A DNA stretch of 63,825 nucleotides, counting the filler, from Folioceros fuciformis (taxonomy: Eukaryota), in NCBI GenBank assembly GCA_049999805.1. It is 6 parts of 6 records of this genome, joined end to end, with 100 filler letters (N's around TTAATTAATTAA, not from the genome) between each part and the next. Parts side by side here need not be neighbours in the genome. Positions count along the whole stretch, not along the records: positions 19,522 to 28,612 come from JBNGIO010005387.1; 5 more parts are not named here. The stretch is one strand, 5' to 3'. The notes beneath the pieces were generated by a model. It made no database searches, had not been told where the DNA came from, and worked only from the letters and a program-made list of their open reading frames with translations. Position 1 is the first letter of the stretch, and every line of letters begins with the position of its first letter. The position numbers and the translations under genes were made by a program. Below are positions 4,485 to 60,149 of the stretch, piece by piece.

Positions 4485-6556
4485 CCAAGCTGTAGACTAG
4501 TACTTAGATACAGGTGCTACAGCACACATTTGCTTTGACAGAGGATCTTTTCAAACATATCAGTCAGTTAAGGATCAATACGTTTACCTAGGAGATGACA
4601 GATCCTTAGTGTCTCCTAGCCGTGGCACAATAGACTTATTAGTTCCGTCAGGTGCAGTACTAACACTGCATGATGTTTATTATGTGCCAGATATGACTAG
4701 AAATTTAATTTCAGTCAGAAAGTTGAATGCTGACAACAACTATCACATGCTATTCACAAGAACTGAGTGTCAACTGCTTGATGCATTTGACCATAGAAAA
4801 ATACTTCCCTACGGTTCTAAAGACCATGATTTATTTCGTCTTCATACAAGTAGTGGTGCTCCAACTTCTCACTTCACTCGAGATGTCACCATTGTATCTG
4901 CACAGCAAATAGACAAGTCTAAGTTATGGTATGCAAGACTAGGTCACCCTCACACAGCAAAACTACAGAGGTTAGCTATTAGTGACCTTTACCAAGATGG
5001 ACCAATTGGAACGTTGGCTCCACTCACACTTTGTGAATCCTGTGTTCTTTCTAAGAGACATCAACCTGCTTTTAAGAATAAAGCACCTCACACGGCTTCA
5101 GAGGTTTTAGAACTTGTGCACACATATTTGTGTGGCTCACTCTCATAGGAATCCATAGGTGGTGGGAGATACTTCCTTGCTTGTACAGATGACAAAACCA
5201 GGTTTGTCACCACCTACATTTTGAAGCAGAAAAGTGAGTGCTTTAGACATTTTAGAGATTATCTAAAGTATGCTGAAAGGTGGACTAGAATTAGCTAAAA
5301 ACCTTGAGATCAGATAATGGGGGAGAGTTTACCTCCAATGAATTTCAGGCTTTCTATGTTGTTGAAGGCATTGGTTGATAGCTAACAGTTGTCTATACCC
5401 CTCAACAGAATGGAGTTGTTGAGCGACTTAACCTAACTTTGCAGGAAATGACATCCTCGTTGTTACATTCTGCTCGGCTTTCCTTGTCATATTGGGCAGA
5501 AGCCATTATGACTTCAACATACCTTAGAAATAGGTTACCCACAACGTCAGTTGTAGGTAAAACCCCCTATGAGGCCTTTATAGGTCGCAAACCATCAGTT
5601 CAACACTTGCAAACTTTTGGTTGTGTGGCTTATGCCTTCATACCTAAGGAGAAGGGGAAAAGTTGTTAGATAAGCTAAAATGCATCTCATGTTAGGTTAT
5701 ACAGAAGGAATCAAAACCTATAAGATTTATGATGTCCGTAAGAACAAGATTGTATATGCCCAAAGTGTTACCTTTGATGAAAGTCACACCTGGGCATCCT
5801 TAGAGTCTAGTGAGGATCCTGTCCTCAACAATGATGAAGACTCCACAGGCTTTGTTGATTCCTATTTTGACCAAACTGATCATGGAACTCAACATGTTCG
5901 ACTTGAGGACATTGTTCCTGCAGGTGGGGAAGACATAGCAGATTTTGATTTTGCAGATACTAACGAGGCAGGTGTAGTTGACAATGAAACCATACCTGTG
6001 CTTGAAGATCCAAATCCGCTACCCTTGCATGAACAACATCCTCCCGTTCCTGAAGACGAACAGAACGCAACATTGGAGATGGATGATGATGATGCTGATC
6101 CTGTTTCTACTCAGCCTGTACGGGAAACTCAGCCTATAGACCCATCTCGACGATATCCATATCGTCAGAGGCAACCTCCAGATTATTATCGTGCGCCTGA
6201 TTTTAGAGTCACCTCTTCACATGTGGAAGTCAATACTACCATGTCCTTGGATCCTGTTGAACCATAGTCCTATCAAGAGGCGTTGAGCCGACTTGATCAC
6301 ATTGAATGGGAGAAAGCTATTCAGTCAGAATATGACTCTTTAATCGAAAATGGCACATGGGAGCTTGCAAAATTGCCACCATGCAGAAAGTTGGTTTCGT
6401 GCAAATGGGTTTTCAAATTAAAAGTAAAGATAGATGGTACCTTCAATAGGTACAAGGCTTGCTTGGTCGCAAGGGGATTCTCTCAGGTCCCAGGACTGGA
6501 CTATCTTGAAACTTGTGCTCCAGTTGTCAAGCTTGCCACCCTAAAAACAATCCTTG
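4485..6556 (+). pseudogene. pol: Ty1/copia pol (protease, GAG-pre-integrase, integrase, N-terminal RT), with stops and frameshifts
   Basis: YLDTGATAHIC; WYARLGH; RSDNGGEF; PQQNGV; YWAEA; CKWVFKLK...KACLVARGFSQ; truncated at 6556. Confidence 0.95.
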
Positions 6557-7286: not shown

Positions 7287-7386
7287 NNNNNNNNNNNNNN
7301 NNNNNNNNNNNNNNNNNNNNNNNNNNNNNNTTAATTAATTAANNNNNNNNNNNNNNNNNNNNNNNNNNNNNNNNNNNNNNNNNNNN
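7287..7386. other. Artificial contig linker 44N-TTAATTAATTAA-44N (also 19422-19521, 28613-28712, 49582-49681, 60031-60130)
   Basis: Identical 100-bp structure five times; the 12-mer has stops in all six frames. Confidence 0.97.
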
Positions 7387-19421: not shown

Positions 19422-20816
19422 NNNNNNNNNNNNNNNNNNNNNNNNNNNNNNNNNNNNNNNNNNNNTTAATTAATTAANNNNNNNNNNNNNNNNNNNNNNN
19501 NNNNNNNNNNNNNNNNNNNNNACCAATGGTGGATCACCAACGGTGAATCCATGGTCTGGAAGACTGCGGAATGGTAAACCGAAGACCACTGACCCGGATA
19601 TGTCAGTGAGGGGGAGAGTAGAAAGCAGCAAAACTGGAAATGAGGGATATGAATCCTCAAGTAGTGAGAGCATTGACAGTGAGTTTGGCATTCCGTCTGT
19701 AGAAACGCCATGTGCTAAGGAGCAACAATATGCAAGGCAAGTTCAAAATGAACTAAGACCAAGGAGATCTGAGAGGGTTAGGAAACCCATTGACAGGTAC
19801 ACCTATACAAGCTACAATGCGCAACATTATGCGTATATGACAAGGGTCACAGCTTGTAAGGAGCCAACCAAGTTTGCTGAGGCAATGACAGATGATAAGT
19901 GGTGTCAAGCCATGGATGAAGAATACTCATCATTAGTTGAGAACGGAACGTGGGATTTGGTTCAATAGCCTGATGGCAAAGTTCCTATTGGTTCTAAGTG
20001 GGTGTACAAGCTAAAGTTCAAGTCAGATGGAACTCTGGAGCGTTACAAGGCCAGGTTGGTTGCAAAGGGATATGCACAACAGTATGGTCTTGATTATGAG
20101 GAAACCTTTAGTCTAGTAGCCAAGATGACAACTGTAAGGACAGTCATAGCATTAGCAGTAGATAAAGGATGGAAGTTATGGCAAATGGATGTCAAGAATG
20201 CCTTCTTGAATGGTGAGTTGCAGGAGGAAGTGTACGTGGAACAGCCTGAAGGCTATGTTCATCCTAAGTTTCCAACATACGTCTACAAACTAAAGAAGGC
20301 ATTGTATGGACTCAAACAGGCACCTAGAGCATGGAATGCTCGTATCACAAGCTATTTGAAGGAGCGAGCGTTTGTGATTGGAGACGCAGATCACAGTATG
20401 AGCTGAGATTATGAACAATACCAAAGAAGCAAGAGCAGAAAGGCAATAGCAATCATTATGTGTAAGAAGACCTACAAATATGTCAAGGGGCATAAGTGGT
20501 TATAACTGCTAGTCTATCCCTAACTACCTAAGATGTAACCCTAAGTACATACTAACAATGTATATAATAAGTAATTATTATTTTTCCTAACACTCCCACT
20601 CATTGTGTACGTATGTCTTAGCGATACGCCCACCGAACCTGTCCAGAATAGAATAGCCCAAAATCGTCCACTCAAGTGTACCAGCAGAACGGGTTCTCTG
20701 CACGCGTACAGCAGTGATAGTCCTGTGTGACATGAAATTCACAGCGCCCAGCCGCAATTCGCATCCCTAATCTCGGCATCGGCTGGACAGAGTTGGAGCA
20801 TCCACAGCTGGTGAAG

Positions 20817-21839
20817 ATGGCGAACGATGGCGCGTCCAGGACTTCTACTCGTCAACAAGACACCACAGTCTTCAAAGAGGAGATCACAGAGAAACGCCAA
20901 CTGCCACACACCGCTACGTCGACTCCAGCACCACCTCGAAACACAGTCCAGGGGTTTGCATCAGCTGCAGAGGAGAGACTGCCCGCTCGAGTGGTAGAGT
21001 TCCTTGCACCACGTCCAGTTCAGCCAAAAGCTCCAGAGTGCATCTGTGAGGCCAAAGCTCTCTTGTGCCCTCGACACGGCAAAATTCCAAAATGGCTGCG
21101 ACAGTCAGGCTTCGAAGGCAACTCAGCGCTGCTGGTGGCCAGTCTGCAGAATTCCANNNNNNNNNNNNNNNNNNNNNNNNNNNNNNNNNNNNNNNNNNNN
21201 NNNNNNNNNNNNNNNNNNNNNNNNNNNNNNNNNNNNNNNNNNNNNNNNNNNNNNNNCCCACTTTTGCTCACAAGCGCTTCTCACCGCATGGTCCTTTGAA
21301 TGCAGTGAAAGCTCCACCATAGGAGGAGGACGAATACATCATGCTGCCTACGCCTCACAACCCAAGACCCTTCACACTGCCTAGAGGAAACCGGACCAGG
21401 ACTGTGAGGTTGATAACAGACGGCAACGGGATCAATGACCCTCTCACTCCTGAGACATACACCTGTACTGTGACTGGAATTACAATGATCAGAGAGGACT
21501 GGTTCAAGTGGGGTGGAGAGCACGGAAACTTCATATCATTTTACAGTAAGTCACTCACTCACCTCTGAATTGGTTTGCACACTATTGCTGTGCCTTGAGC
21601 ATAAGCTGTGAACTTACAACCTAACTACAGTGTCTGAACAAAGAATGCATGAGGAGGCTGGAGTGGAATATCCTATGGAAGACGAGGACACAGATGAAGA
21701 ACCAACAGACCACAATTTTGACTCCAACTTTCAGGAACTCCTTAGAAGGAATCAAAATGAGGACAGACCTAATCTGTTCTTTGGTGAGCCAGATAACAGT
21801 GGCTCAAACTCCGATGACAATTCTGTGTCTGATTTCTAA
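20817..21839 (+). CDS. Antisense accessory gene inside the 3' region of copia Y; predicted intron 21546-21630; N-gap 21157-21256; one in-frame TAG at 21320
   Basis: GTAAGT donor and CTAAC..TACAG acceptor join ORF 21341 in frame to acidic ORF 21630-21839; homologous to ORF 33431-34000. Confidence 0.7.
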
Positions 21840-21914
21840 GTTATGAAATGCCAACATCTGTGTGTGACTCTGTGACACTTGCTGCAGTCAGGTGCTGCAG
21901 AGCACTCTATCTTA

Positions 21915-24900
21915 CAAGGAAAGAGGAGTTAAGGACTCCTATGGCTTCTTTGAATTGCACATGTTTCCCCTTAGGTAGAGCTTTCGTTAAAACATCTGCA
22001 GCATTCGAATCTGTAGGGATATATTCGAGATGCACCTGTCCAAAAGATACTGCTTCACGAATGAAATGATGGTGCATTTCAATATGTTTGTCCTCGCATG
22101 GAAGACTGGATTTTCAACCAAAGCCAAGGCACCTGTGCTATCACAGTGAATTGTAGTAGGCTGCACCTGCTCTTGACCCAAATTTTTTAGTAGCCTCCGG
22201 AGCCATATGGCTTCCTTCGCTGCTTGTGTAAGAGCATAATACTCTGATTCAGTCGAGGACAACGAAACTGTGGTTTGCTTTTTCGAAGACCAGGTTATGG
22301 CATCGCCTGCCAGAAGAAAAACATAAGCCGACACTGACTTCCTGGAGTCAGAATTTGCTGCCCAGTCAGCATCATAGTACCCTATCAAAGTAAGTGGCTC
22401 TCCTTCATGATGTTGCTTTGTATAATGAATGCCGTGACTACTTGTACCCTTCAGGTACCGTAGGATCCTTTTAACGGCAGACCAATGTGTTCTGCCAGGT
22501 TGCTTAAGGAACTGTGAAGTAGTACTAACTGGCAACGCTATGTCTGGTCTCGTGTTATTGGAGCAGAAAATCAGCGAGCCAACGGCCTGTGCATAAGGTA
22601 CGTCCTGCATTTCCTGTTTTTCTGAATCAGTCACTGGTGAATGCTCCAGTGTGAGTTTACTAGCTGCTTCCATAGGAGTTGCAGCAGGTTTAGCCTCCGT
22701 GAGCTTATACTTATGTAGCATATCAAAGATGTATTTTTCTTGATGGATAACCAGCGTGCCACTGGACTTATCTCGCGGGAGTTGAGTACCCAAACAGTAA
22801 GAGAGTTCCCCAACATCCACCATATCAAATCTGCCAGATAAGAGACCTTTAACTCGGTTGATACCTTCAAGATCAGTACCAAGTAGAATACAGTCGTCTA
22901 CGTACAAAGCTAACACCACATAGCCTGTCTCCTGTTGCAGGAAGTACACATTAGAATCTGCATCACTCTTCTTGAAGCCGAGGTCACGTAGAAACTCATC
23001 AATGCACTGGTACCAAGCCCTTGGTGACTGTTTTAGACCGTAGATAGTTTTCAATAGTCTGCAGACCCAGTCCTCACGTCCCTTAGCTTCATAACCTTCT
23101 GGCTGCTGCATATAGATCTCTTCTTCCAGCTTACCATGCAAAAACGCAGTCGTCACATCCATTTGATGGATGAACAAGCTGAAAAATGCAGACATAGCAA
23201 ACAGGGCACGCAGGGACTGTGCCTTAACAACGGGGGAGAAAGTGTCATTATAGTCGAGCCCTGGGACTTGAGAGAAACCCCTAGCCACAAGGCGAGCTTT
23301 GTACCTCGCTATAGTTCCGTCAGCCTTATACTTGAGTTTAAACACCCATTTGCTGCTGACAATCTTCCTCCCCTTAGGCGGGGGACAAAGCTCCCAAGTC
23401 TGATTGTGGATAAGAGAGTCATACTCGGAGGTAATAGCTGCAATCCAATGACGAGAGTCGGGACCTGTGACTGCGTCTTGGTAGGATTGAGGTTCATAGC
23501 CAGGTTGGACAGTGACATGGACAAATTCTCCCACTATCTCATTCGGGTTCACTCCCACTGCCCGAGGCACTCTCCTAGTACGCCAGTCCTCAGCCTCATA
23601 GGGTTGTTCAAGCCACTGGTCTCGTCCACGATGCACCCTTGCAGACCTTCTAGGCTGAGGAGGCATCACATACTCTACAGGGTCATCAACAACAAGTTCA
23701 GAATCATCAGCTGGAGGGAATTCAGGCACACCATCGAAGGGATCATCTTCTTCAGCTGAATCTGAAGCAGCAGCAGGTGATGCAGGAGGATCCAGTGGAG
23801 GAACAGGGAGAGAATCTGGTGGGAGAGCAGGAGGAGGGTCTGGTGGGAGAGCACCTAAATCTGGAGGATCTGTGACATCAGAAGCATCAAAAACAGGAAA
23901 GTCTACAATATCTGTAGGCTTTGACTCATCTGACTCAGTGTAAATAGGATGTTTAGGAGTGGGATAAGTATCTGCATCTGACAAATCAACAGGGAGATCA
24001 GCAGGAGGTGTAAGGACAGAGCGCTCATCAAACGCCACAGTGCGAGCATGAGACACTTTACGAGAAACTGGATCAAACAGTTTATAACCATGAACTCCAG
24101 GTGTGTAGCCGATAAACACATGTCTTTTTGACTTGAAAGAAAATTTCTTCCAAAGCTTGTCTGGTATATGTGCATAGGCTATACTACCAAAGACACGAAG
24201 GTGGGAAATATCAGGCTTTACTCCTGTCCACGCTTCAAAAGGAGTTACATGTGATAAGGAAGAAACAGCTGTTCTGTTCTGCAAGTAAGTAGCAACTTGA
24301 ACAGCCTCTGCCCAGAAACATATAGGTAGCCTCCCCTGAAAAAGTAGAGCCCTGGCAGCATCCTGTATTGTTCGATGTCTACGTTCTGCTCTTCCATTCA
24401 TATCAGAATGATAAGGAATAGTTAGCTGCCTTGTGATGCCACGTTCCTGACAGAAATCTTGAAAAGCTGAGGATAAGTATTCCTTCGCATTATCAGATCT
24501 TAAACTCTTCAGCTTACGCCCTGTCTGACGTTCAGCATATGCCAGGTATCTTTTAAAACTGTCAAACACATCCCTTCTATGCTTCAGCGACTCAGTGACT
24601 GTAAAGTGAGTTTTATCATCTTCAAAGACAACAAAATACTTGGCACCTCCCCAACTTGGTGTGGACATAGGGCCACAAATGTCCGAATGAACCAAGTCTA
24701 ACACTTCTGTCTGTCTCCGTGGTTTGCCAGATCCAAAGTGAGATTTAAACTGTTTCCCATGAACACATGCAACACACAACTCCAAATCTGGTAAGTTAGA
24801 ATCTGTAAAACCTGTAACCATCTTGTCCTTCAACAAACGTCTCATGGCTTTAACGTTTGGATGTCCAAGCCTGCAGTGCCATCTGAAGGCAGCGTATGAT

Positions 24901-26297
24901 TTACTAGATGCAGACTCCACTACATGGGCTGATGATGGTTGGACATCTGAGACAAAATCTAGGATATACAAGTCATACAGGGGAGTACCACGAGCTATGA
25001 CATCTGAAGGTGAATTCAGCCTAGTGATAACGCACTCTAAACCTTCAAACAAAATGCTGTACATACCTGTTTTTCCTAAGGCCATAGTACTAACAAGATT
25101 TTTCTTGAGTGCAGGGACATGGAGTACATTCTCTAACTCCCATGTCTTCCCGTTCTTCAGAGTAACTATCACTGTACCTATACCTCTAATAGGTATATGA
25201 GAATTATCTCCTAGAACAACAGCATGTTGACAAGGTAACTATCTATAACTTACAAATGACTTCTTAGAAGAGCACATATGATTAGATGCACCACTGTCTA
25301 AGAACCAATGATTTTTGTCCTTTGACACTGAGGACAGACAAGCCACAAGCAAACCAGGTGTTGTAGCTCTTGCCACATTTGATTCATGCTGCTTTCCTTT
25401 TCCAGCATCATCTCTTTGCTTAGCCCTGCAATCTCTAACCCAGTGACCTGGCTTGTGGCAGTAATTGCACACACCAGGCTTCTTCCCGGGCTGCTGTGAG
25501 CTGGAGCTGGAATCAGGTCGGGACGCTTGTCCCCTGCCCCTTCCAAATCCTCCACGCCCACGCCCCCTTCCTCTGCCGCGACCTCTGCCGCGGCCAGACC
25601 AAAGTGCAGTATCACTTTGCTTATGGGATGAGCTCGACGAACCCTTGCCAGTCATATGCTTCCTGTTGGCTTCTGCTTGAAGCAGGGCTCCAACTAGCTT
25701 TTGTACAGTCAAGGATGTCGTTGCTGGGGTTGTTGCAGTTGCTGGAGTAACAGTTGCTGTTGCTTGAATACTTGTGCTCCAAGTTTCATAGCTTGGAGGA
25801 AGGGCCAACAAGAACTGTACAGCTGCTCTACTCTCATCAATGATGACTCCGCATGCTGCAAGTCGTGCTGTTGCTGCCCTGAACTTTGCAACAAAGCTTT
25901 CAACTGACTCATTTTCTTTCATGCGCAAATTTTGCCAGTGGTTGGTGGCGGCTCCCACTGAAATCAAATCCTTTGCTTCATGTGCATGCTTGGCCATCTT
26001 GATATGAGGAATCATTTCTTGTGAAACTGAACCAACAAGAATTGTCTTTGCTTTTCTATCCTTATGACTCCATTCTAACGCATCCTTCGGCGTCCACAGT
26101 ACAGGGTTCGTCCCCCCTGGTGTCATCATACCAGAGGGCTGCCCAGCCACCCTTTTTGGAATGGTGCCGTCAGTGACTTCCATCAGAAGTCTTTCTTCAA
26201 GAATTGTACGAACCCTAAATGACCAAGCATCAAAATTGTGTGGAGTAAGGCGATCCTTCTCCTGTAGGCAATCAGAGGTCTGGTCTGCTGTCGCCAT
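21915..26297 (-). pseudogene. gag-pol: gag-pol of element Y, nearly intact (stop at 25239, frameshift near 22085)
   Basis: CNYCHKPGHWVRDC; WFLDSGASNHMC; WHCRLGH; RSDNAKEY; LYVDDCIL; DADWAANSDSRKS. Confidence 0.95.
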
Positions 26298-28712
26298 TTT
26301 ACTCAGCTTCCTTATGAAGGGAAGGACCTCAGATCAGCAAGCTGCTGTCTGAGATTAGTAATATCTGATGCATGGTTCTTCACTTCCAATTCCAGACCTA
26401 CTGCTGAAACTGACTCAGATTCCCGCTGTTTCTCCTGACGATCTAAACGAGATGTTAGAAGGTCCACACGTCTGGAAGTCCCCAAGACAGCGGACTTAAC
26501 ATTCAGCAGTGAATTAAGAAGTACATCAAATTGCTTTAAATCAAAGTGCTTCGAATTATCTTGTACAGGAAAAGGAAGTTGACAACATCTACAAGTAGCA
26601 AGTAACTGGGGTAATCGGCAAGATGAATCTGATGCAAACTGCCTGCCTGGAACTGCAGATTGATGCGCTCCCACTTGACTGGAATTATAGGTTTCAAGAA
26701 ACGTCTACGGAAACCGTACTCGCTCCTCTTGCTGTGCTTGTGAAAGCACGTTCTTGAAATAAAGGTTCTCAAATTGAACTCCGAAATCTTGTATTTCTGA
26801 TGTTGGCGTCGCAAGACATCGACCCTGCCTACTTGCTGATGTCCAATGATTCCTGCAAACGCCTTTCCTCGGCATCGTGCCGGTTTCGCATTAGCGAATG
26901 CCTATTCTGCTCTTTTCTCTAATGAGAATTATCCATAATCCAAGAAACACCATTATCAAGTCCTCCCCACATTAAATCTAAGAGGAAGTAAAGAGCAGAA
27001 AGGCATGGATCAGCATGGCTCTGATACCAAGCTGAGATTATAAACAATACCAAAGAAGCAAGAGCAGAAAGGCTACTAGCAATCATTATGTGTAAGAAGA
27101 CCTACAAATATGTCAAGGGGCATAAGTAGTTATAACTGCTAGTCTATCCCTAACTACCTAAGATGTAACCCTAAGTACATACTAACAATGTATATAATAA
27201 GTAATTATTGTTTTTCCTAACAGTCTGTTCGTAAAACAGACCAAGGTAGGACAAGTGTGTCTTGTCGTTTATGTTGACGACCTGATCATCACAGGAGATG
27301 ATGCAGATGGTATTGCAGATGTCAAGGCGAATCTGCAAAAAGAGTTCAAGGTGAAGGATCTTAGTGAACTCAGATACTTCTTAGGAATTGAGGTTGTGTC
27401 TACACCTCAAGGAATCTGGCTATTCCAAAAACAATATGCTAAGGATATGTTGCAGAAGTATGGCATGGCAGATTGCAAAGCGATGGATACACCATTGGAG
27501 CAGAACGTCAAGCTGCAAATGGATGTAGGAGCTGAGCTGGAAAATGTGACTATGTATCGACAGATGGTCGGAAGTTTGATCTACTTGACTATCACACGTC
27601 CTGACTTAAGTTATGCAGTGGGACTGATAAATCAATTCATGCAGAACCCAAGGAAACCGCACTTGGATGCAGTTAGAAGAATCATGAGATATGTGAAAGG
27701 AACTACTGAGTTTGGATTGCTCTATGAGCATAGGAAGCATCTTGAACTGACAGGATATACAGATGCTGATTGGGCTGGTTGTGTGTATGACAGAAGATCA
27801 ACCAGTGGATATGCATTCAGTCTGGGAAGTAGTATGATCAGCTGGCAAAGCAAGAAACCACCGACAGTTGCTTTGTCAAGCACAAAAGCAGAGTATCGAG
27901 GAGCTGCAATGGCAGGCTGTGAAGCAGCTTGGTTGCAGAAGTTGCTACATGATCTTGGAAATATAGTGAACAACAAGGTTACAATCTACTGTGACAACAT
28001 GAGTAGCATGAGGTTGGCTACTAATCCTGTGTTTCATGCTCGTTCGAAGCACATAGAAGTACATTATCATTTCATCAGGGAAGCGGTATTATCTGAGAAG
28101 ATAAATCTTCGGCACGTGAAGACCGAAGACCAGGTAGCAGATATCTTTACTAAGTCGCTAGGTAGAGATAAGTTCTTACACTTTCGTGAACTACTTGGAG
28201 TGTTACAAATAGTCTGAGCTTGAGGGGGAGTGTTAGAAATCAAGCTCTAACTGAATTGTTATTAAGAGCATACAACACTTAGGATAGTGTAGATTATCCC
28301 ATATTGAACTCGTAGTTATCTATCACCTAAGTGTTATCAGGATATATCAGGATATACTAGGATATTGCACCCTCGAGACTAAGGCTTACCTTATCGAGGG
28401 TTGCCTCGCCTGAAGGCTATATATGTAGCATCCTGTGCACCATAAGTAAGGAACTGTGGAGTCCTTCCAGGCTTGTGGTGCTATTTCAACAAGTAGACCA
28501 CCCTGCCCCCCTAGAGTCCGAGGTCATTATGGTTGCTGGCATCCCCCCAGAGGCAGCCACACCCCACCCCTCCCCCTCTTGAGCTCTGCTCCCATAGTTT
28601 GAGGCCGCGCCCNNNNNNNNNNNNNNNNNNNNNNNNNNNNNNNNNNNNNNNNNNNNTTAATTAATTAANNNNNNNNNNNNNNNNNNNNNNNNNNNNNNNN
28701 NNNNNNNNNNNN

Positions 28713-29113: not shown

Positions 29114-31369
29114 AGCGGGATCGGGATGGCGAAGGAGGAGCGGGGGCCTAGGGGCTAGATCAGCCCGTGGCGAGGGGAGATGGCAGCGGGATTGGGGAAA
29201 ATGGGCAGGAGAGCAAGGCAAATCTAGCAACGGGGCTGTAGATTGGGGAGGAAATCGAGACAGGGCAGGAGGGGAATGGGGCAAGAAATCAGCGGGAAGG
29301 AGAAGGCAGGCTTGGCCCTGCATCGGGCGAATCCTGCAGCTCGTCTCAGCCTCCTCTTCTGCACACATTCGATCCCATCACCTGTCGATCCCTCCTCCTG
29401 CCTGCAATCTGGATCCAAAGAAGAAGAGGTGCAAAAGATGGGAAGGGAGATGAGAGGGAAGGGGAAGAAGAAGAAGAGGGGGGGCAAGAAGGGAATGGAG
29501 GAGTGGGGAGTGAAACTTGCACCCAAGAACCACCAAGGGGCCACACTTCCCCTTATTATCGTTGCAGTCTTATGATTCGCTCCCAAGGGAGTGAACTAAT
29601 TTCAAGGTTACCTACATCTCCCTAATCTCACCCTATCTATCAGCATATACCAAGTGCTACAGCAATAGGTCAGAAGTCTCGGTCCTGTCTTCGGCTCCTA
29701 CCACAACACCAACCCCAGCCTCAACAAAATGAAAACTCCAGCATTGTCTTCAGCCTTCATTTCCAGCTCCAAGTATCAATCACTTCAGTGCTAAGAGGAG
29801 GCTCCAGCCCCAAGTCTGGCCTCCAACTCTCAGCACCTAGTGCTAGCTACCTCCGCAGCTGAACGAGAACCTCAACTTCAGCTAGCTCCTCACTCCAGCT
29901 CCAACACTTCATTCCACCACTTCAGCACTTCACTTGAGCACTTCAGCACTTCACTTGAGCACTTCAGTTCTTCACTTCAGCACTTCAGTCCTTCACTTCA
30001 GCACTTCACTTCACCCTCCAGCCCCTCACTTCAGCTCAACTCCTCACTTCAACACTTCCACTTCCAAAATCTACAACTCAACCCTTCTCTCCTGCAATTT
30101 GGAACACAATAGCCTTCCCTCTTGCAGCCTTCAAGGCAAAGGCGAGGCCTAGGGCTGGGTAGCCTCCTTTGCTCACGGCCCTGCAACCTCACCTCAGCCA
30201 GCATGCAAGATGGTCAGCCATTGCGGATTCGGCCACACGAATCTTGGCAGTCTTGGGATCCCCCACGTTCCCCTAGTGGCAAGGGAAATCAAGACCTTGG
30301 TTTAGTCTCAACCAGCTCAGCGCCCTAAGCCAGGAGTTCTGCACCCAAGGTCCAGGGAAATCGCACCGTAGACAGCCCCCTCCTCAATGGCAGGTCTAGC
30401 CTTTTATACTACCTTGGCCCAAACCTCCATCTCCATCTATTAGGGTTAGCCTCAGTCAACTACCCAGCAATCTCTCTCTGACCTAAGCCGGCCCTAATTC
30501 TGACCTAAACCTAACTCTGACCTAACCCTAACTTTGACCCAAACCTAGTTCTGACCTGAAAGGGGTTGTGTCCCATGGACACCACTGGGTGCCCTTACCA
30601 AAATTGACCAACCTCTCAAGACTACCAAACTGGTCAGTGCCTCTCAACCCTCTCCCTTCTCTCTCAAATCATTCCATCCCTTCTCTTAGATCATTCCAGC
30701 AACCCTTCAAAGACACATCTCACCTCACCATTAATCTAGCTACTAATCTTTCCTAATCTTTTAACTTTTTCACCACAGGGTTCACTTAACGATTCCCAAA
30801 AAGAGAAATCCTACCATTTTCTAAGGACCTATTCAGGATGTGGAGTCCACAAGGAGGAAGGGAGAAAGGGGGAAAAGGGATGGGGACGGCCGTAACCCCT
30901 GCCTCTAGCTCTAGCTAGGGCATGGCCTCCATGGCCGTTCATGCCAGCCAAGCAATCAGCTAGCCTATCTTCAGACCCTGACCCCTGACACTGACATACC
31001 CAGATACCCGTTCCTATGTTCAAACCATTATTTTATTATTTTATTATTATTATATTTAATTATTTAATATTATATATCTTTAATTAATATTAAACTAATC
31101 ACCAGACCTAGACTCAAACTTTCCCAACCCTATGGCCTGGTACCAAACCTAAACCTTCCCAGGTCTGGGACCAAACCTATACCCACTCTTATAACCAAAC
31201 CAACTATTTCCTAGTCAATTAACCTAATTAGCACAAAGAAAAATAGGAAAAATGACCAGAAAATCAAGGAAAATTAGGAAAAATAAGTAGAAAAAGAAAA
31301 CCAAACCATACCACTATTAACCCTTTTTCAACCAAAACAAACTACTACCCCAAACTTTGGAGGTTCACA
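29114..31369 (-). mobile_element. LTR-like element 'C' (starts TGTGAACCTCCAAAGTTTGGGG), inserted into a copia RT and hosting A and B insertions
   Basis: Copia RT resumes exactly at 31370; start resembles TGTGAGCTCTCAATCTTTGGGG at 6557. Confidence 0.6.
29504..30851 (+). mobile_element. Solo LTR, family A (1348 bp), TSD AGGAG
   Basis: TG...TCCACA termini; AGGAG at 29499-29503 and 30852-30856. Confidence 0.88.
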
Positions 31370-33428
31370 GTTTAGTACATAACAATGTACTTATACCTGC
31401 TCAGCATTAACTTTGTCAAGAATGCAACCGACAATAATGTGTACAAGCTCACACAAGGAGCATCCATCGTCATCTTGGCGCTTTACGTGGATGATGTAAT
31501 ATTTGCCACAAACGACCAAGGTCTATTAGCATCTATAAAAGACAAACTCAGCAGTAGATTCGACATGAAAGACATAGGGGAGCTTAAATTCTACTTAGGA
31601 ATCCAACTCCTCCGTGTAAGGGCAAAAGGCCTATTATTCATTCACCAGTACAAGTATATCGACGAAATTCTTATGAAGTTTAACCTAGATGAAGCTAGGC
31701 TAGCTACTACACCCTACGCTAAAGGGACAAAGCTGACTAAATACCTGTGGCCTCAGTCGCAAGCAGAAAAACTGGACATGCAAGATATACTTTATAGGCA
31801 TGCTATTGGGTCTTTGATATTTGTCGCCAATTGGACACGACCTGACATACTGTACGCTGTGAGTACAGTTTTGCAGTTTTTAGAGAACCTTGCCAGGGTG
31901 CACTGGGTTGCTTTTAAGAGAATATTCCACTATTCAAAGGTACACACAAATACGGGCTTATGTACAAGAGCACAAGGCAGAAGCAACTTATCTTGAGGGG
32001 CTTTACAAACGCCGATTGGGCTTCAAACTCCGATGCGCGAAGGAGCCTCTCCACATATTGCTACTTGCTTGGCACAACAGCCGTTACTTGGAGCGGCAAA
32101 AAGCAGGCATTTGGTGCCCTTAGCTCATCCGAGGCTGAATACAAGTCCCTAACTGAGGCAGCAAAAGAGACTGAATGGGAACGCAGTTTCCTCAAGGACT
32201 TGGGCCAGCCGTAAGAGAAGCCCACTCTTGTACTCTGCGATAACACTACAGCCCTAGAATTAGCTGAAAGTTCCAAGTTTCATGCCCGCACTAACCATAT
32301 TAAAGTGCAGCATCATTACATCCGAGATGTGGTCCACAGAGGTGTTCTCAAATTGGAATATGTACAGACAGACGAAAACATGGCTGACATCCTTACGAAA
32401 GGATTGCCTAAATACAAACACTACTACCACATGGAAGGCATGGATTAAGGGACTATTCTGCCTATTTTGAGTGATAGTTGCTAATCTGGGTGGTGGGGGG
32501 GTGGAAGCCTATGCTTCCTAACATGAAAGTTTAATCTGCACCTCCCAGATGACTTGTGCTGCATGAGCAACGACCCGATTAGCCTTCTGCAGCCAATGCA
32601 TAATTGAATGACACAGGATCAAATGGATGAAGCGTAAGGGACATCCTAATCATCTGTATGCCTATCTCGACAACCCTACTCCTACCCATACTTCTCTTTC
32701 AGTTGCCCAGGAGCTCTGTAGCTTTCTACAGTTGATTGAAGAGCCCTTGCTTCCCTTCCTCTCCCATAGAGTGTGACGGCAGGGTGACTGTCTCCCTCTC
32801 ACAAACTCTGCTCCAAGCTAAGGTAACATTGAGTGCTACATGGTAACCACTTGCGCAAATATACTGGTCGGCGTCGTACCGCCCCTCCCATTCCAGCTCC
32901 AGCTCCTTCCAGCTCCTATCGCCATCCATCTGGGATGCTGGCTGGGTGACGGTGCTGAGTTGGGAGTCCTCTGAACGAGTGTGCTTGCGACGACCTATGC
33001 GCCTGTGAGAGCTATAATCTGTCCCATTCCTCTTGCTCATGATCAGTCGAAGCAGGAAACACCCTAGACGCGTGAGTATGGAGAGCAGAAGTTGCAGCTG
33101 GGCGGTGATCACAGCAAGGTGGACCACCATGGATCTTAAGCTAACAGCTTTAATGCGGAGCGGGAGATGGATTGCTGGCTCAACCACTGCATTATGTTGG
33201 AGCGTGCGTAAACGAGAGACTATTCCTCGTGAAGGCCAGCCCGCCTGGTTCTTGTGGGGCATATGTTTATCATAATTTGCATTTAATTAACCGTGGTTAG
33301 TTTAGGAGGGAGTGTTAGAGTAAGTAGGGGTAAACCTAACGCAGGTTAATTAAGTTAGGGCTATTTAGTCAAGAGTCACGTACATCAGTATTTAAACATT
33401 TTTGTATTACGATTACGATCATTCCAAC
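31370..33428 (+). mobile_element. 3' part of copia 'W': RT/RNase H (31370-~32448), ~850-bp 3' region with antisense ORF 32726-33262, PPT 33304-33312, short LTR from 33313
   Basis: LYVDDVIF; ADWASNSDARRS; ENMADILTKGL; AGGAGGGAG|TGTTAG. LTR 3' end approximate. Confidence 0.85.
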
Positions 33429-33430
33429 TA

Positions 33431-34000
33431 TCAGAGTTTCTCTACGCTCTCGCCTTCGCTCATTTTACACAAGGTGCATATAGAGTCTTCAGGTGTGAGA
33501 GGGTCGTTAGCTTCATTCCCGTGAGAGATCAAGCGTCTTCTCTTCTTCAAGTCACCTATTGGGAGTGCGAGCTTTCTAGGGATGAAGTCGGCAGAAACCA
33601 TAACCTTGTTGCTCTCCATCTCGTCAGCGCTCGTCATCACCTTCAGTCTTCCCTCCATGTCGTCTGGGTAGGAGAGCTTCTTCTTGGTCGCCCTCAACTT
33701 CTGCTTCAGAAGTCTGATTTCATGAGCTAGTTTGGCCTTTTCCTCCTCCAGACCTATTGTGACTTCCCTCCAGTGCTGTGTCATTTGATAGAACTCCTCT
33801 CCTTCCACGGCACGCCATTTTTGTTTTGTGTCAGGATGGACATGACAGCAAGGAGGAAAGGAAGCTCTGCAATTGCACAGGTCGATGACGGTTGAAGCCC
33901 TCGTCATATAGCTTGATGCTGTGTCGCCTCCTTCCTTGGCACTAAGAAGATCATCAGTATCAGATAAAGTGATCAGGGCAGCGGCTGTTCTCCCAGCCAT
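33431..34000 (-). CDS. Antisense accessory ORF of copia 'V' (Cys/His motif, coiled coil, NDPLTPE block), C-terminus probably cut by element W
   Basis: Open ~190 codons from ATG 34000; lies just upstream of a PPT/LTR on the opposite strand; homologous to 20817-21839. Confidence 0.7.
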   Translation of the reverse strand: MAGRTAAALITLSDTDDLLSAKEGGDTASSYMTRASTVIDLCNCRASFPPCCHVHPDTKQKWRAVEGEEFYQMTQHWREVTIGLEEEKAKLAHEIRLLKQKLRATKKKLSYPDDMEGRLKVMTSADEMESNKVMVSADFIPRKLALPIGDLKKRRRLISHGNEANDPLTPEDSICTLCKMSEGESVEKL

Positions 34001-34193
34001 GTTAGTTGCGACGATGCTGAGGCTATAGACATGAGAGCTAGTGAAATGGACGCATGAAGTTTTCAACTATGAAGATGTAAGCAGCTCAGTTGAAGACTTC
34101 TGCTGCGGGAGTACTTTCAATTCGTCGGTTTTATGGGCGAACATGTGGTAGTTGATAATATTTAATGTCATTTGTGCTAGTAGGTATACCCAA

Positions 34194-34392
34194 TGAGTGG
34201 AAGTGTTAAGAATACCATTAGTTAGGTATTCGGTTAATTGGGTTACCTATTCATACTTTAGTTTATTATTTTAGGTTTAATAAGCAGTTATAACTACCAC
34301 CCAAGACTCATGCTATATGTAATCGCGTTTAGGTATTGTGTTGTAACGTTTTCATGTTTTTGCTGCTGCCCTCTACAAATTTGAGCCTAGCA
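34194..34392 (+). repeat. PPT (34194-34203) and probable short 3' LTR (34204-34392, TGTTAAG...CTAGCA) of copia 'V'
   Basis: TGAGTGGAAG resembles the Y PPT TGAGTGGGAG; AT-rich ~190-bp TG..CA block of similar size to the Y and Z LTRs. Confidence 0.65.
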
Positions 34393-36129
34393 ATCACATC
34401 CGTCACACCTATTGACTCCCCCACTTGGCAAGAGTCATTAGATTAACCCCAAAGAAGAGCATGCTGCCACCCATGATCTATCAGACACCATGCAAGCATG
34501 GTCGGCACTCACTCCAGTACTGCGAGGAAACAAGAATGACAAATCATGGGGCACGACATGGAGAGCACGATCAAGAATTAAAGGGACCCAGCCCTTAACC
34601 CTAGCCACTACTTCTCAAAGCTTTATCGGTCGTTGCACAACATGCATAGCCGGCACACACTGCTGCATCCAAGCAAGGACAGCCCGAGATAGATGGTTAA
34701 GTGACAAGCGGGTTCTAAAGGCTCACAACCTCTTCTAGAAGACTTCTAGCTCTAGTCCCCTTCCTCTCTCTACAGGTTGACCACTAGGACACGATAACCA
34801 AAACAATAGTTTATAGCACACTATTATTCTAGACTAGTTCATCAACTAGTCATCAACTTGACAAGCTGCCAGCCCCCTTGCTAGCCCTACCAACAGCTCT
34901 TGTTGATCCTTGGCTGTCGAATACTCTTCTAAGATTTGGTGGGCGCCGCCTTCTTATTATTGATTGGCTGTCTGCAAATGCTTCTCCTGCCACTGTTTCC
35001 ATGGCGGTTGAGGTCGCCTCAGGGCCAATCACCTTCACTCCTGTAGCATCTCCCCTAACGGTTCTTGAGTAGCGGGGCCTGCCCTTACATGCCAAACAAT
35101 CAAGCATCCTTCCAGCCTAAATTCCATTGCCAGGAGTCACGAAGGCCGATTGTCCTGCACCACTGATCATATGTTGGGTGCACTCCTCCTGTTTGTGCCA
35201 ATTTGGCAGCGGACTACAAGATCCCATCCTGCACATAATTGCTTGCACATACGTGTTGAGGATTTGTTGCCTCCCCTCTCCAAATGATCAGCCACAAAGA
35301 TGTGATTTAGGATTGATCGGATCATCATGGCTTTCCGACCACTCAGTGTAATTTAGTGATCTTCTACAAAGATTCGAGGAAGCCGCACGTTTGAGAGACC
35401 TAAGCCAATCATGGCGTCCTAAAGAAGAAGCCCTTTGTGTGGAATTGGGCTAGGAATTATGTTGAGCTTGAGAGAGAGAAGCAGACCTACTCCACCTAAC
35501 TTATTTGCTATGTAGTTGTGAGCTCAATCTCACTCTTGAGTGTTCTAATGTGGTTTAGGGTTTAGGGTTTAGGGTAATAATTATTCATCTTATTTATAAT
35601 TCATCTTAAATACCAGTTTTTCAAATCCCTTCAAATCCCATTAATAAAAGGATAGGAAAGATGACAAGGAAAATAAATAAAAATAGTGTGTTTATTAAAT
35701 AATTTTCTTCCCTTTTCTATCAATACTATATGAGAATAATAGAGCAGTAATTTATTTAATGAAATTAACCTTTAATTTCATGGTGCAAAAAAACTTTGCT
35801 ATATTCCCATAATAGTAAAGACGAGTTACATACCATGACAACGATCTAGGATATGCTTTAGATGATTTGACATAGGGTCCATGGTAAGATCCTTGTAGCT
35901 CGGATACCAAGTTAGAAAATTACATCCGGAAGCATATTTTGTATACATGTTAGTAATAACAAAAGCCACTTAAGATAATACAAAAGGTTGACTTTTATAG
36001 ACAATGACCCAAGAGGTGGGACCTTTCACTAGCCTTGTTAACTAACTGAAATGATCTCCTAACCCTAGCTACCTAACTTGGCTAGTACAGAACCAACATG
36101 GTTTGTTAATACATTCTAATTAATTAGAA

Positions 36130-37852: not shown

Positions 37853-40800
37853 TTACCGTCGGCGTTCTTGCTGAATAGACAAGAGAATCCCAGCAGCTGA
37901 TTCAGGTGTCGCTACCACTGCTCGAGGGGCTACTTTAACCACACCTCCTTGGAGCTCACCAGAAACCAGACATGGCCGATCTTGATATTTGTCCACGACC
38001 GGGACAACAGGAAACAAAGGAAGTGGATTTCTCATACTAGCACTGCTCTGCAAGGCCTCAACATCTGCATCCTCATCCCTGGCACGCAAGTCCGTTTCTT
38101 TGGAGACGCATAGATCTCTCGGCCTCTTTTGAGACCGCTCATGATTCTGTTGTCCAGATATGCCATGCAAACCAGAAGCTGCATCTGTAGAGGCCTCTGC
38201 CTCAAAACTATCCATTTCTGATTGACATCTGTTCCAGCCTCCCTCTCTGTGTACCCTACTCGGTTCAGGCTTATCTCCTGCACTCAAGTTCTGTTGCAAG
38301 GATCTGTGGGCAGTACTTGGTCCCTGCGAGTTTACCCTGTCCACATCTGTCGTCGAGTTCCCCTTGGGCGTAGAGCCCATGGATGGTATTTGATACGTCC
38401 CACACAGCTCGAAATTGGGCCGTGGAACCAACGGTCTCCCCATTGCAGACGATGGAAACATATCTGCATACTCCAACGACTTGGTTACAGAGCATTTTGC
38501 ATGGTGACTTTGCACAGGCCCTTGAGACATACTGTACCATAAAGACATTGGATCACCTGCAGGTGCAGGTGCTGATGAGCCATAACATTGAGGATGTCTC
38601 GAGGCCCAAGAATAATACCTTGAGCAAGACTCCGAAAACAACTCAGACCATTTCTCATAGCCAGACAGGCCAAATGACATCATGGACAGATGACCTGGTA
38701 CACTGACCAGTGGGCGATATGGCCCATATGCACCAACAAGAGGACCTGCAGAGGGGGCAAAGGAAGGAGGATAATGGCACATATATGTTCCTGTCCTGGC
38801 AGACATGGCTCCCAGCCATGGATTTACGGGATATGGGGGGTAACCCCAAGCATTCGGTACCTGGGGATACAAAGCGGATACCTGTGAGACAGATGCTTGA
38901 CCAATCCGACCCTGGGTTTCTGTGCTCGTAGATGTAGGACCTTCCTTACAGGAAGATCCCTTTGCAGTCACAGCCTCTGTTTGCATAACACTGCTTGGGG
39001 CTGCCTTTCTACTTCCACGCGATTTATGATGCATTCCGGCATCATGAATTTTTGTTTTCTCACAAGCTTTCTCTATCAAGTTTGCAGCCACAAAATCACT
39101 ACATCCTTCAGATACAGTGTAGTCCACACTTGGAGACATGGCCATAAGCTGCTGAACCTGTTCACAATCAGCACGTCCACTACTGAGCCATTTGCAGGGC
39201 TGAAAGACTCTCGGGCAATAACAAGGAATAGCAAAGATATAGATTGCCAGGGTGAGAACCTTAACCAACCGGTGAAGCTCAAAAACCTGGACAGAAAAGA
39301 TTCTTTGCTGCCTGTGAACAGAGAGAGAAGCAGGGTATCACATACAATAAGCACAAGATTCAACAGAATCTACAAACGAGATCATCTAGGCTCTGACTCA
39401 ATGTGTCTTGCCTCCATGTCTTAGCTCAAGCTGGCAATCGAAGAGTGAAGCTAATCATAGCTCCACAGATTGCCAGGGCTAGAGAATCTAATACTTGTGG
39501 TACAAACGAACAAGATAAAACGCGAGATTCAAACCATGAAAACAAAATTTACCTTAAGATAGCTTTCCGGGTTCTCCAGAACTCTTGTTGACCAATGGCT
39601 CCAATGACATGTCTCGGAGAGATCCTGTGAATGGTTATCGAGTCGACCATGGAGGAGTCTGAATCATCGCCTGTGCAACCAGCAACATATGAAGGTTCGG
39701 GAGCTTGTAGCCCATTACCAGCTCCCTGGTGTTCAGAATCTCCACTGCTTTCAATACTGTCAGTTTTGTATCCTTGTGGATGATGGTGCTTTTCAAGATT
39801 AGGAGAAACCTTGCGGATGGACGAGATATTGTTGAAATGATTGTCCTCTGTATCAGTGACACCATCCTTCGGCAAAACAAGGCCGCTAGACATACCACAA
39901 TCATGATCTTGACCCCTGTCTCTAAACCCATGGGGAACTATGGGGCCATGCATTGCACATTCGTCATGCATAGCACATCCTACTGCAGTCTGTGCAGAAG
40001 CTTTAACGGACTTGTTCCTCGGGTCTTGAAATGAGCCTGGTTCCAGAAAATTGCCAGCAGATACAAGAGGTTCATCAGGCCAACTGTCTCGCCGAGGGGA
40101 CAGCACGTTCCCAAACAAATCAGGCACCACCGTTTTGCACAAGCCTGAGTTACAGGCAGTAGAACCTTTCAATTCAGATATTGCCTTACTTCGCCTTGCT
40201 GCTCGAGTACCAGTCTTCCCACTGCAGCTTCCAGTAGCGTCTAATAGATCCTGACACACCAGTCCAGTTGCATCCTCAACTTGTCCGTCTCCAGCACTTT
40301 GCCCAGTCATGCCACTTGCAGCATTCAAGGACCCTTCGTGCATACTCTTCACACCAGTATCCGGAAAAAGAGATGACCCTACTTTGTTCTTGTGGGGCAC
40401 GGAATATATTGGCACAGTGAAATCGTCTTCATTTCTATGCTTCTTAGCGCATGCCAACTTCGGCTGATCAATAGAGTGAGCACCTGATACAACATTCAAA
40501 GGCCCAGGTCCCGGGCTAGGTGCAGAACTATCCACCTGCGAAACACCAGGAACTCTTTGTAACTCTCCATCACCGTCAACAATGGTACTAGTACTGCTCC
40601 CAAGAGATGCGTGGCCTCCCAACTGTCGTCCCATGCTGGTACCGGTATATGCCAAAGGGGGCGGGACACAGTTCTGAGGATACATGTACCTCCTGTCATA
40701 GACCGAGTACTGCACATGTGGAGTCCACGGTTACAAAGACAACAACAGTGATCAATAACAACTGCATGTCGTGACTGCTCATTTGGCTAGCGCACAAAGA

Positions 40801-42324: not shown

Positions 42325-42794
42325 GAGCAATGGGAACTAGGGATCTTTTAGTTCCTCTGGGACATCAATTCCTCTGTGACGGTGCGGGAATTTGCTAAGA
42401 CCATGTTGCTGTGTGCCCGTGGGAAGGCGCCCTCCGCCAAAGTCCAAGATAACCCCACCCTTTGGATAGTGCAAATGATGCGCGAAGTATATTAGAGACT
42501 AGTTGAGGAGCTCGGTGGTCTCTACCTTAACTTGTAGCGCAACAAGGACTTGGTCAAGGAGGCGGTGGCGGCGTTCTTGCAGGAAGACTCCATGAAAACC
42601 ACCAATGGGTGGTTGATTCATGACATCTTGGACCCACGGATTAGGGGAGTGGCCAGGATTATCTTCAACTAGCTTCTTGTGACCAAGACGAGCCACGTTG
42701 CGGATGGGGTCCTTCTCCTTTATGGGCTAACGCAAGGTACCCCATTTGATTGGGGAAAGGTGGTCGCACATCGGATACAGTCCAATGTTAGGAA
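42325..42794 (+). pseudogene. Decayed retrotransposon-associated accessory ORF, continuing at 49213-49340 after element Z
   Basis: Frame reads ...LTQGTPFDWGKVVAHRIQSNVR|KLKQEKPPTSELSPFLFHIW across TSD AGGAA. Confidence 0.55.
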
Positions 42795-43256
42795 TGCTAC
42801 TAATTGCGGAAGCGAAAACATTGTAATAATAAATAAAAGGAAAAATATCCTTAAATACAAAAATTGTATGTGTGTCTTTTGGGTTAACTGAGTAACCTCT
42901 GGTTAGACTAAGTCATAAGTTATGTTAGGGTTTTATATCCAACACTCCCACTAAACCTTACATGGATTAAGTAACTACAGGTTTGAATACAACATCATTA
43001 CAAGCCATTACTCTCAGCTACCCTGCTCAGCCAAGTACTCACGCATGGAACCCCTGATTCTTAGTCCTCTTAAACCTCGCATGCAGCTTGCTAAGGGAAG
43101 CAGTCGCAAAACAACTGATTGTGGATCTGCTTAGACTCGACAATCAGCAAGCCACCAGCCATATCTTCCAGGCACGCCGGCAAGAGGAGCGCAAGCAATA
43201 GTGTTGGTGGAGATCAGGAGCGTGGGCGTTCCACAGCCAGAAAGGGAGTTCCAGCT

Positions 43257-48855: not shown

Positions 48856-49340
48856 ATTGTAGAATCAACAGACTCATTCACAATCCCATTAAGATTTAGA
48901 TTAAACTAGCGAAATATATAGTGCAAGCAGAGATAAATTTCTGGTCACACAATCGCACATTTTCCAAGGAGGAAATTTTTGCATTATATGAGCAGCTAAA
49001 ATTATCTATATTAGCACAATTTTAGAGTGAAAACATATATAGCTGGTGCTCTGATACCATGCTACTAATTACGGAAGCGAAAACATTGTAATAATAAATA
49101 AAAGGAAAAATATCCTTAAATACAAAAAATGTATGTGTCTTTTGGGTTAACTGAGTAACCTCTGGTTAGACTAAGCCATAAGTCATGTTAGGGTTTTATA
49201 TCCAACAAGGAAGCTCAAGCAGGAGAAACCTCCTACTTCCGAACTATCCCCTTTCCTTTTCCATATTTGGGACTATTACGGAGTCCTGACTACTTCGGAA
49301 AAGACAGCCATAGCCTAGCTCCCTCCTACACCTACTCCGA

Positions 49341-59962: not shown

Positions 59963-60149
59963 GTTTTATCCCTCGCGTCCCGGTCCTTCTCCTCCACTCA
60001 CACTCATTCCTTTTTTTAGTTAGTTAGGGTNNNNNNNNNNNNNNNNNNNNNNNNNNNNNNNNNNNNNNNNNNNNTTAATTAATTAANNNNNNNNNNNNNN
60101 NNNNNNNNNNNNNNNNNNNNNNNNNNNNNNTGAAACCCTAAACCCTCAA

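Follow-up and report, generated by a model that had tools for sequence, protein, structure and literature searches.

An antisense protein block conserved between two Ty1/copia retrotransposons in the spacer between pol and the polypurine tract

The stretch of DNA analysed here (the window, 63,825 nt including filler) stems from the assembly GCA_049999805.1 of Folioceros fuciformis. It contains copia Y, a Ty1/copia retrotransposon whose spacer between pol and the polypurine tract (PPT) carries open reading frames (ORFs) on the opposite strand. One of these antisense ORFs holds a block of 50 amino acids (aa) that recurs in a second copia element, F2. The window is composed of six scaffolds glued together by N44-TTAATTAATTAA-N44 linkers (7287-7386, 19422-19521, 28613-28712, 49582-49681, and 60031-60130), so that the neighbourhood across the linker points is without meaning. 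Copia Y and its candidate antisense gene lie within a single scaffold, 19522-28612, which also contains a plain gap of 100 N (21157-21256). The features of Y and of its spacer, including the long terminal repeats (LTRs) and the primer binding site (PBS), are the following:

20401-20595, minus strand: 3' LTR of Y, 98% identical direct repeat of 27030-27225; the minus strand opens with TGTTAGG
~20593-20607, minus strand: PPT of Y, sense ..AATGAGTGGGAG, at the LTR start, found by reading the sequence; the same motif precedes the F2, F, and G LTRs
20817-21299, plus strand: frame-0 antisense ORF, from ATG 20817 to TGA 21299 through the gap, with a Cys/His-KW motif at 21039-21095, CICEAKALLCPRHGKIPKW; its frame differs from that of the block
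21092-21568, plus strand: frame-2 antisense ORF holding the block; first ATG 21092, interrupted by TAG 21320-21322, unspliced stop 21566-21568
21157-21256, no strand: assembly gap of 100 N inside the Y spacer, bridged by 31 letters in contigs of the DNA sequencing runs X1 and X2
21323-21472, plus strand: conserved block of 50 aa, ..RLI..GN..NDPLTPE...CT., 21/50 identical, gap-free, to 33619-33470 (minus strand)
21546-21630, plus strand: candidate intron, 85 nt, phase 1, with GTAAGT at its start and CTAAC TACAG at its end (CTAACTACAG)
21631-21839, plus strand: candidate last exon, an acidic tail of 69 codons with 31% Asp+Glu; its stop is 67 nt from the pol stop
21907-26333, minus strand: gag and pol of Y, by Pfam; an in-frame TAG (25239-25241) separates gag from pol, and the frame shifts near 22086
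27030-27225, minus strand: 5' LTR of Y, direct repeat; the PBS TGGTATCAGAGC for tRNA-Met adjoins at 27029-27018

Copia Y was assigned to the Ty1/copia group by its domain order, its two LTRs, the PBS, the PPT, and a target site duplication, the flanking 5-mers being equal at 4/5 positions. Pfam identifies Retrotran_gag_2 and zf-CCHC in gag and, in pol, Pol_BBD, gag_pre-integrs, rve, SH3_retrovirus, and RVT_2, in this order, which is that of copia elements. The preliminary description of this DNA had called Y full-length. It does possess two LTRs, a PBS, and a PPT, but it is not intact, since gag-pol is interrupted by the in-frame TAG and, toward the end of RNase H, by the frameshift near 22086. 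With the pol stop at 21907 the spacer up to the PPT measures ~1.3 kb in the assembly, in which the gap accounts for 100 N, and carries plus-strand ORFs, in agreement with the earlier statement that about 1.3 kb between RNase H and the PPT code on the opposite strand. Copia Y is itself nested in the reverse transcriptase (RT) of another, plus-strand copia, the pol of which matches at 19756-20400 and resumes after the Y 5' LTR (27219-28205).

In addition to the frame-0 ORF starting at ATG 20817, the plus strand of the spacer contains frame 2, which after the TAG at 21320-21322 is open over 21323-21568 with the block included, and a third, acidic ORF, again in frame 0, at 21612-21839. It had been proposed that 20817-21839 is one spliced gene. 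This model could not be maintained: the ORF from ATG 20817 is not in the frame of the block and a TAG precedes the block, and therefore the region is not one open spliced frame; moreover, the gap of 100 N lies inside it. An intron with GT 21135 and AG 21322, found by eye, would join the frame of ATG 20817 in frame to that of the block. Its donor is poor and it is not proposed here.

The gap-free match of the block to a second site at 21 of 50 residues was reproduced. Its Smith-Waterman score is 100, compared with 24.7 +/- 4.1 (maximum 43) in 2000 shuffles (z about 18), and tblastn within the window reports it with E = 1.6e-8. The identity amounts to 42% over 50 aa (40% over 53 aa by tblastn), against 45-51% for pol of Y and copia F, a comparison of two elements only.

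The manner in which the two copies differ is that of a coding sequence read in the antisense direction. Identical residues of the block are encoded by different codons in Y and F2 at 13 of 21 positions, and in the core of 24 codons 7, 7, and 17 differences fall on codon positions 1, 2, and 3 of the antisense frame. When the six frame pairs were compared, the antisense frame scored best (100, the others 68, 42, 42, 25, and 21). Copy 2 is free of stops in this frame, and Y has a single TAG in it. After masking of the NDPLTPE core, the left 37 aa still align in register with a score of 52, which was reached in 0/5000 shuffles. At the DNA level, the Y and F2 spacers share just a 20-nt stretch (90% identical) and the PPT. 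The different codons for identical residues, the excess of third-position changes, and the best score in the antisense frame argue for selection on the antisense protein, and this indicates that the block was selected as a protein between the Y and F2 elements. The proposal of a conserved protein antisense between RNase H and the PPT of copia elements is thus supported by the coding pattern of change, as seen in two related elements.

The second copy of the block lies in a composite region with the following features:

33470-34000, minus strand: antisense ORF of F2, 177 codons from ATG 34000; a long helix lies between the Cys/His-KW motif (33877-33815) and the block (33619-33470); cut at 33470
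33313-33469, plus strand: 3' LTR of F, 157 nt, starting with TGTTAGAG and ending with TTTTACA, its PPT GGAGGGAG at 33305-33312; it aligns with the Y and G LTRs
34189-34400, plus strand: PPT of F2 (34189-34203) and start of its 3' LTR, from 34204; both align with Y, the LTR over its first ~130 nt

A homologue in a second copia family had been claimed before, and the homologue of the block is real. However, it does not belong to the neighbouring copia F. The similarity to Y ends at 33470, exactly at the end of a copia LTR, and the last 12 codons plus the stop of the ORF 33431-34066 are sequence of the F 3' LTR, which truncates this ORF. Since the end of the similarity coincides with the F LTR, which follows the F pol (end 32442), F must have inserted into the spacer of F2 and cut the antisense gene. 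Judged by this junction, the real carrier of copy 2 is F2, not F. The window contains the spacer, PPT, and LTR of F2 but not its pol; the likeness of its PPT and LTR to those of Y makes F2 a relative of Y. The F2 ORF, the less damaged of the two, starts about 190 nt from the PPT and is continuous from ATG 34000 through motif, helix, and block.

Both elements share a common layout, in which the PPT is followed by about 190-210 nt, an ATG, the Cys/His-KW motif, and the block. The distance from KW to the block is 158 nt in Y and 201 nt in F2, and the frames differ. We read this difference in spacing and frame as a probable rearrangement in the Y lineage and not as a second intron.

For comparison of the Y copy with other copies we used contigs from the three DNA sequencing runs X1, X2, and X3, which are of one sample. 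A near-identical contig (X1 and X2) spans 20537-22120 with 17 substitutions relative to the window. It joins 21156 to 21257 by 31 letters, a length in phase with 100 N, and the frames of Y as listed above therefore hold. At 21320 this contig reads C where the window has the stop-making T. The stop before the block is consequently confined to the window copy; frame 2 of the contig runs on across 21320 and is open back to 21050, its first ATG being 21092. At 22086, where the frame of the window pol breaks, the contig carries an additional letter. At 14 of the 17 substituted sites, A or T in the window stands against G or C in the contig. This A/T excess of the window copy fits decay of a silenced copy by cytosine deamination.

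By region, the differences number 5 upstream of the ATG (221 nt), 3 in the frame-0 ORF (340 nt), 2 past the gap (66 nt), none in the block exon (223 nt), 1 in the intron, 1 in the tail exon (209 nt; synonymous), and 5 plus the indel in pol (214 nt); with 17 differences in all, such small regional counts carry no weight. Another contig aligns to 21473-21535 with 8/63 mismatches. Ahead of 21473 it has a loose end of 30 nt, from a third variant that is more distant; read by eye, this leaves the frame open and retains L-T-x-E-x3-C-T, which means that the organism also has more distant family members. The X3 contigs over 20652-22089 deviate from the window nearly exclusively by C>T (41 sites) and G>A (51 sites), as expected of a converted (bisulfite or enzymatic) library; if so, the methylation state of the element could be read from them. 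No RNA run was among those listed for the stretch, and a run presumed to be RNA, X4, gave no contig on it.

The 85-nt candidate intron had been described correctly as far as its signals are concerned, with GTAAGT at 21546, an acceptor ending at 21630, an in-frame join, and an acidic tail. Joining 21545 to 21631 yields an open product of 143 aa. In the ranges scanned, 49 GT/AG pairs also give open joins, so that in-frame joining by itself is unremarkable and the case for the intron depends on the quality of its signals. The perfect GTAAGT is located seven codons before the unspliced stop, and the acceptor is the first AG within the downstream ORF, with CTAAC ahead of it. This branch-like CTAAC is ~6 nt from the AG, which is a short distance for plant introns. 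From these signals we infer that 21546-21630 is spliced in the Y family, which would append the acidic tail. The tail has no available homologue because copy 2 is cut before that point. The argument that an antisense intron would not be removable from the genomic RNA is logically sound.

Two further copia elements of the window, F and G, have antisense ORFs in the same place:

32726-33286, minus strand: antisense ORF of F, 186 aa, unrelated, in a spacer of 870 nt between the pol end at 32442 and the LTR start at 33313
43119-43748, plus strand: antisense ORF of G, 209 aa, first ATG 43257, unrelated, in a spacer of 1043 nt; pol ends at 43988

The LTRs of G are at 42794-42944 and 49059-49207. Neither antisense product showed similarity to the block, to Y or F2, or to the other; the only marginal case was a Pro-rich 13-mer (reached by 4/1000 shuffles). 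The G product has a helix followed by C-x2-C-x6-C-x2-C at its end, and a CTAAC...CAG acceptor-like site is found ~85 nt past its stop. Y and F are sisters in a tree of 84 sequences built on RT and RNase H (RT-RH), for which G is too incomplete to be placed. All four elements have a common PPT/LTR junction, (A/G)GTGG(G/A)AG or GGAGGGAG followed by TGTT(A/G), located at 20593-20607 in Y, 33305-33320 in F, 34189-34210 in F2, and 42938-42956 in G, and their LTRs are short (~150-195 bp).

Antisense ORFs of 186-209 aa are present in 4/4 spacers of the window, the one of Y (187) crossing the gap of 100 N. The longest sense ORFs in the spacers have 85-117 aa. As a control served those 35 of 80 metagenome copia loci (found with the Y RT-RH) that have at least 1200 nt after pol, of which the first 1.5 kb were scanned. 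Here the longest antisense ORF has a median of 97 aa; ORFs of at least 150 aa occur in 3/35, two of them being the integrase of another copia. With 4/4 spacers compared with 3/35 controls, long antisense ORFs seem to be a trait of the group, the products of which are heterogeneous. In L005, one of the metagenome relatives placed nearest to Y and F in the tree, the 343 nt that follow the pol stop (4949-5291) are devoid of a PPT-like motif; an antisense frame is open there for 80 aa, in a contig too short to judge.

How are the antisense ORFs of Y and F2 to be interpreted? In our judgement there is about an even chance that they represent a lineage-specific antisense accessory gene of the Ty1/copia group, residing in the ~1-1.8 kb spacer between pol and the PPT. 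Such a gene would be transcribed from an antisense promoter of its own at the PPT/3' LTR end, and in the Y family a single splicing event (21546-21630) would append the acidic tail. The product may be a small regulator of the element's own cycle that acts in trans by binding nucleic acids or proteins, a role modelled on proposals made for Grande gene23 and the Retand antisense ORFs. The protein parts on which this regulator role draws are the Cys/His knuckle, the helix, the conserved C-terminal block, and the acidic tail. In its full form the proposal is of an undescribed protein family made from a spliced mRNA of an LTR-proximal antisense promoter, with an intron inherited through retrotransposition and a trans-acting regulator as product (e.g., a silencing antagonist or a targeting factor), a copia counterpart of HBZ; as such a whole it is tentative and rather doubtful.

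Several observations weigh against an accessory gene. Neither copy is intact, as Y has the stop before the block and a frame conflict and F2 is cut by the nested insertion; the conflict, by which the motif ORF and the block ORF of Y are in different frames, is found in the window copy and in the near-identical contig alike. The comparison has as its base two full copies and one 30-nt fragment. Sister element F and copia G are without the block, which is therefore not constant in the lineage. A Cys/His motif followed by KW had been noted upstream of the block in both elements. The motif itself stands, since the pattern C.C.{6,7}C.{1,3}H.{3,8}KW, although chosen post hoc, matches just two sites in the six-frame translation of the window, those of Y and F2; it was found in 0/20000 shuffles of either N-terminal part, for a pattern defined after both sequences had been seen. 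The N-terminal halves of the two products, however, are not alignable, with a score of 25 that was reached by 1180/2000 shuffles. The antisense transcript, its start site, and the intron are for their part predicted from the DNA sequence.

The searches for relatives and folds point in the same direction. Pfam gives nothing above cut-off for the Y, F2, F, and G antisense products. No zinc-finger family of Pfam matches them despite the common Cys/His pattern, and neither Transposase_28 (PF04195, TRP28) at E <= 1 nor SMC was found among them. A phmmer search with the 211-aa ORF against 1.8 billion representatives returned 0 matches at E <= 0.001, although relatives as distant as Y (~44 bits) escape such a search. 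In word-indexed protein searches the Y block (74 aa) gave 0 matches among longer proteins, Y (81 aa) none among proteins of near length, and the G ORF 0. Neither the block nor one of the antisense ORFs is present in the 80 metagenome copia loci, where a coiled-coil stretch in sense orientation gave the best match (E = 0.038). Scans for the block gave 123 pattern matches in metagenome contigs and 107 in viral contigs, none of which was confirmed, and a profile run against the sequences of the PDB matched one antibody chain at E = 1.8. A confident fold was not obtained either: the AlphaFold2 models have a mean predicted local distance difference test score (pLDDT) of 49.0 (helix 68-108 confident) and 39.5. 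This helix, residues 68-108, is the sole confident part of the F2 product, and the Cys/His site has a pLDDT below 50. No described family or host gene matches the block in Pfam or in the protein searches, phmmer being blind to relatives as distant as Y.

Sub-threshold Pfam matches to Pyr_redox_dim (20-21 bits), SWIRM-assoc_1, and Cript, which we treated as chance, are located on stretches that are helical or rich in Cys. PHD and RING clusters of the ESM Atlas gave scores of 0.77-0.80, short of what this tool counts as evidence; the best score overall, 0.81, is below the useful range.

Part of the points raised against an accessory gene can be explained by a dead relic, in which the block descends from an ancestral extra ORF, the gene is now inert, its ORFs are remnants in decay, and the intron signals are due to chance. 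This would account for the TAG before the block and for the conflict between the frames of motif and block that the near-identical contig shares, for the truncated F2, for the 49 other GT/AG pairs that join in frame, and for the lack of the block in the sister element F. Synonymous turnover with the residues kept (13/21), however, implies selection over most of the divergence between Y and F2; in addition, the window copy alone has the stop at 21320, and the truncation of F2 is a later insertion and not decay. We regard an inert gene as unlikely.

If the block were captured host sequence, a fragment of a cellular gene would have been transduced in antisense orientation into the spacer of the ancestor of Y and F2 and carried along as passive cargo. 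Gene transduction is indeed among the origins discussed for antisense extra ORFs in the part available to us of a review (PMC7264820), and extra ORFs come from multiple independent sources according to the text at hand of the REXdb survey (PMC6317226). No cellular relative was found by Pfam or by phmmer with the 211-aa ORF in its 1.8 billion representatives (again with the limit that relatives as distant as Y, ~44 bits, would escape), and such a capture seems improbable to us.

The protein likeness could also be the by-product of a cis element on the sense strand, with the 20-mer GGAGTGAGAGGG serving as internal polypurine tract or packaging signal. The 20-mer, 90% identical, is the sole match of the spacers at the DNA level besides the PPT; on the sense strand it is rich in purines, with a likeness to the 3' PPT. 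Yet the likeness reaches 37 aa past the 20-mer and is significant without it (0/5000 shuffles), the differences gather at the third positions of the antisense frame, and in F2 the tract is interrupted by two T, which leaves this explanation very improbable. Finally, that the block is part of an env-like sense ORF as in SIRE can practically be dismissed: one sense frame is stop-free over the 210 nt compared in both elements, but its score is 42 versus 100 for the antisense frame, its first codon position is the most variable one, and the sense ORFs of the spacers do not exceed 117 aa.

The remaining parts of the window contain other sequences. A host-like ORF at 58786-59619 (minus strand) has a clear Pfam match to the DnaJ domain (56 bits), and a second one at 52144-52728 (plus strand) a sub-threshold match to the start of GRAS (21 bits, cut-off 27); taken with the many copia elements, these two matches speak for a plant genome. 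The long ORFs 37856-39337 and 39552-40730 (minus strand) are without Pfam match. Upstream of the truncated copia F, a CACTTCA-type repeat array at 29884-30032 has a spacing that alternates between 13 and 8 nt.

Extra genes of plant LTR retrotransposons are common and almost wholly uncharacterised, and the well-described antisense cases are those of Ty3/gypsy elements (Tat, Retand, and Grande groups). A conserved and possibly spliced antisense gene in copia would extend the class to the other superfamily. With a spacer of ~1.2 kb and a protein of ~200 aa it would furthermore be a compact case in which to study the function of such genes and, if spliced, a natural example of an intron kept through reverse transcription owing to its orientation. 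For annotation it is relevant that such ORFs fall below survey thresholds of 250 codons and had no match in the predicted-protein collections searched.

The antisense RNAs of yeast Ty1 and HBZ of HTLV-1, which is antisense, expressed from the 3' LTR, and spliced and encodes a coiled-coil bZIP protein, are known examples of antisense transcription in retroelements. The likeness to HBZ is one of analogy only and comprises antisense orientation, a promoter located at the end with the 3' LTR, splicing, and a helical, dimerising segment, all but the orientation being predictions in our case. There is no sequence relation, and the carrier is a plant retrotransposon and not a retrovirus. Antisense promoters have been described for the copia-type elements Mdoryco1-1 of apple and AtRE1 of Arabidopsis, and antisense retroviral genes exist, as set out in the accessible part of the same review (PMC7264820). 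Those two copia elements offer antisense promoters only, as far as that text goes, whereas Y and F2 have an ORF conserved at the protein level.

The closest counterparts are the antisense ORFs between pol and the 3' LTR of gypsy elements (aORF-3R or eORF-3'R). Such ORFs are reported for Grande, RIRE2, Retand, PvRetro13, and Boty, with few database relatives and unknown function, in the sections seen of the review (PMC7264820); PvRetro13 and its 14 sister families belong to Ty3/gypsy (PMC4093653), and Transposase_28 is present in 97% of the Retand clusters in the excerpt available of a further study (PMC11963269). Position and orientation of the ORFs described here agree with Grande gene23, RIRE2, Retand, and PvRetro13 ORF2, namely in the stretch from pol to the 3' LTR and antisense (PMC7264820, PMC4093653, PMC11963269, in the parts available): in Y 20817-21839 is on the plus strand and pol on the minus strand, in F2 34000-33470 is on the minus strand and PPT and LTR on the plus strand. 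They likewise share, as far as these sources go, the restriction to a lineage, the paucity of database relatives, and perhaps, to judge from two elements, a conservation comparable to that of the element's own proteins. They differ in their carrier, which is a Ty1/copia element with LTRs of ~150-195 bp and a spacer of 1-1.8 kb (2.9-6.6 kb in Retand), and in the protein, which is small (~180-200 aa) and without a match to Transposase_28 or SMC. A candidate intron is present here, and in the parts available of those papers none is mentioned. The statement in the preliminary description that antisense extra ORFs are best known from gypsy lineages is accurate for the well-described cases, but the class itself had already been described (PMC7264820, PMC6317226, PMC11963269, as far as available).

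In copia, extra ORFs of at least 250 codons are listed for 582 elements by the REXdb survey (Neumann et al. 2019; PMC6317226), which sorts them into 45 similarity groups, classes them by position and orientation, and describes extra ORFs in general as heterogeneous and independently acquired; in the portion of its text at hand, the sense eORF-3'F of SIRE is the only copia case singled out. The ORFs of Y and F2 are below that threshold, and unlike the env-like eORF-3'F of SIRE the conserved frame is antisense. In the open-access literature searched, we found no account of a copia lineage that has a conserved, spliced antisense gene. Antisense ORFs as a class are already known; copia is their less usual carrier, and the protein described here is new, be it a relic or a gene.

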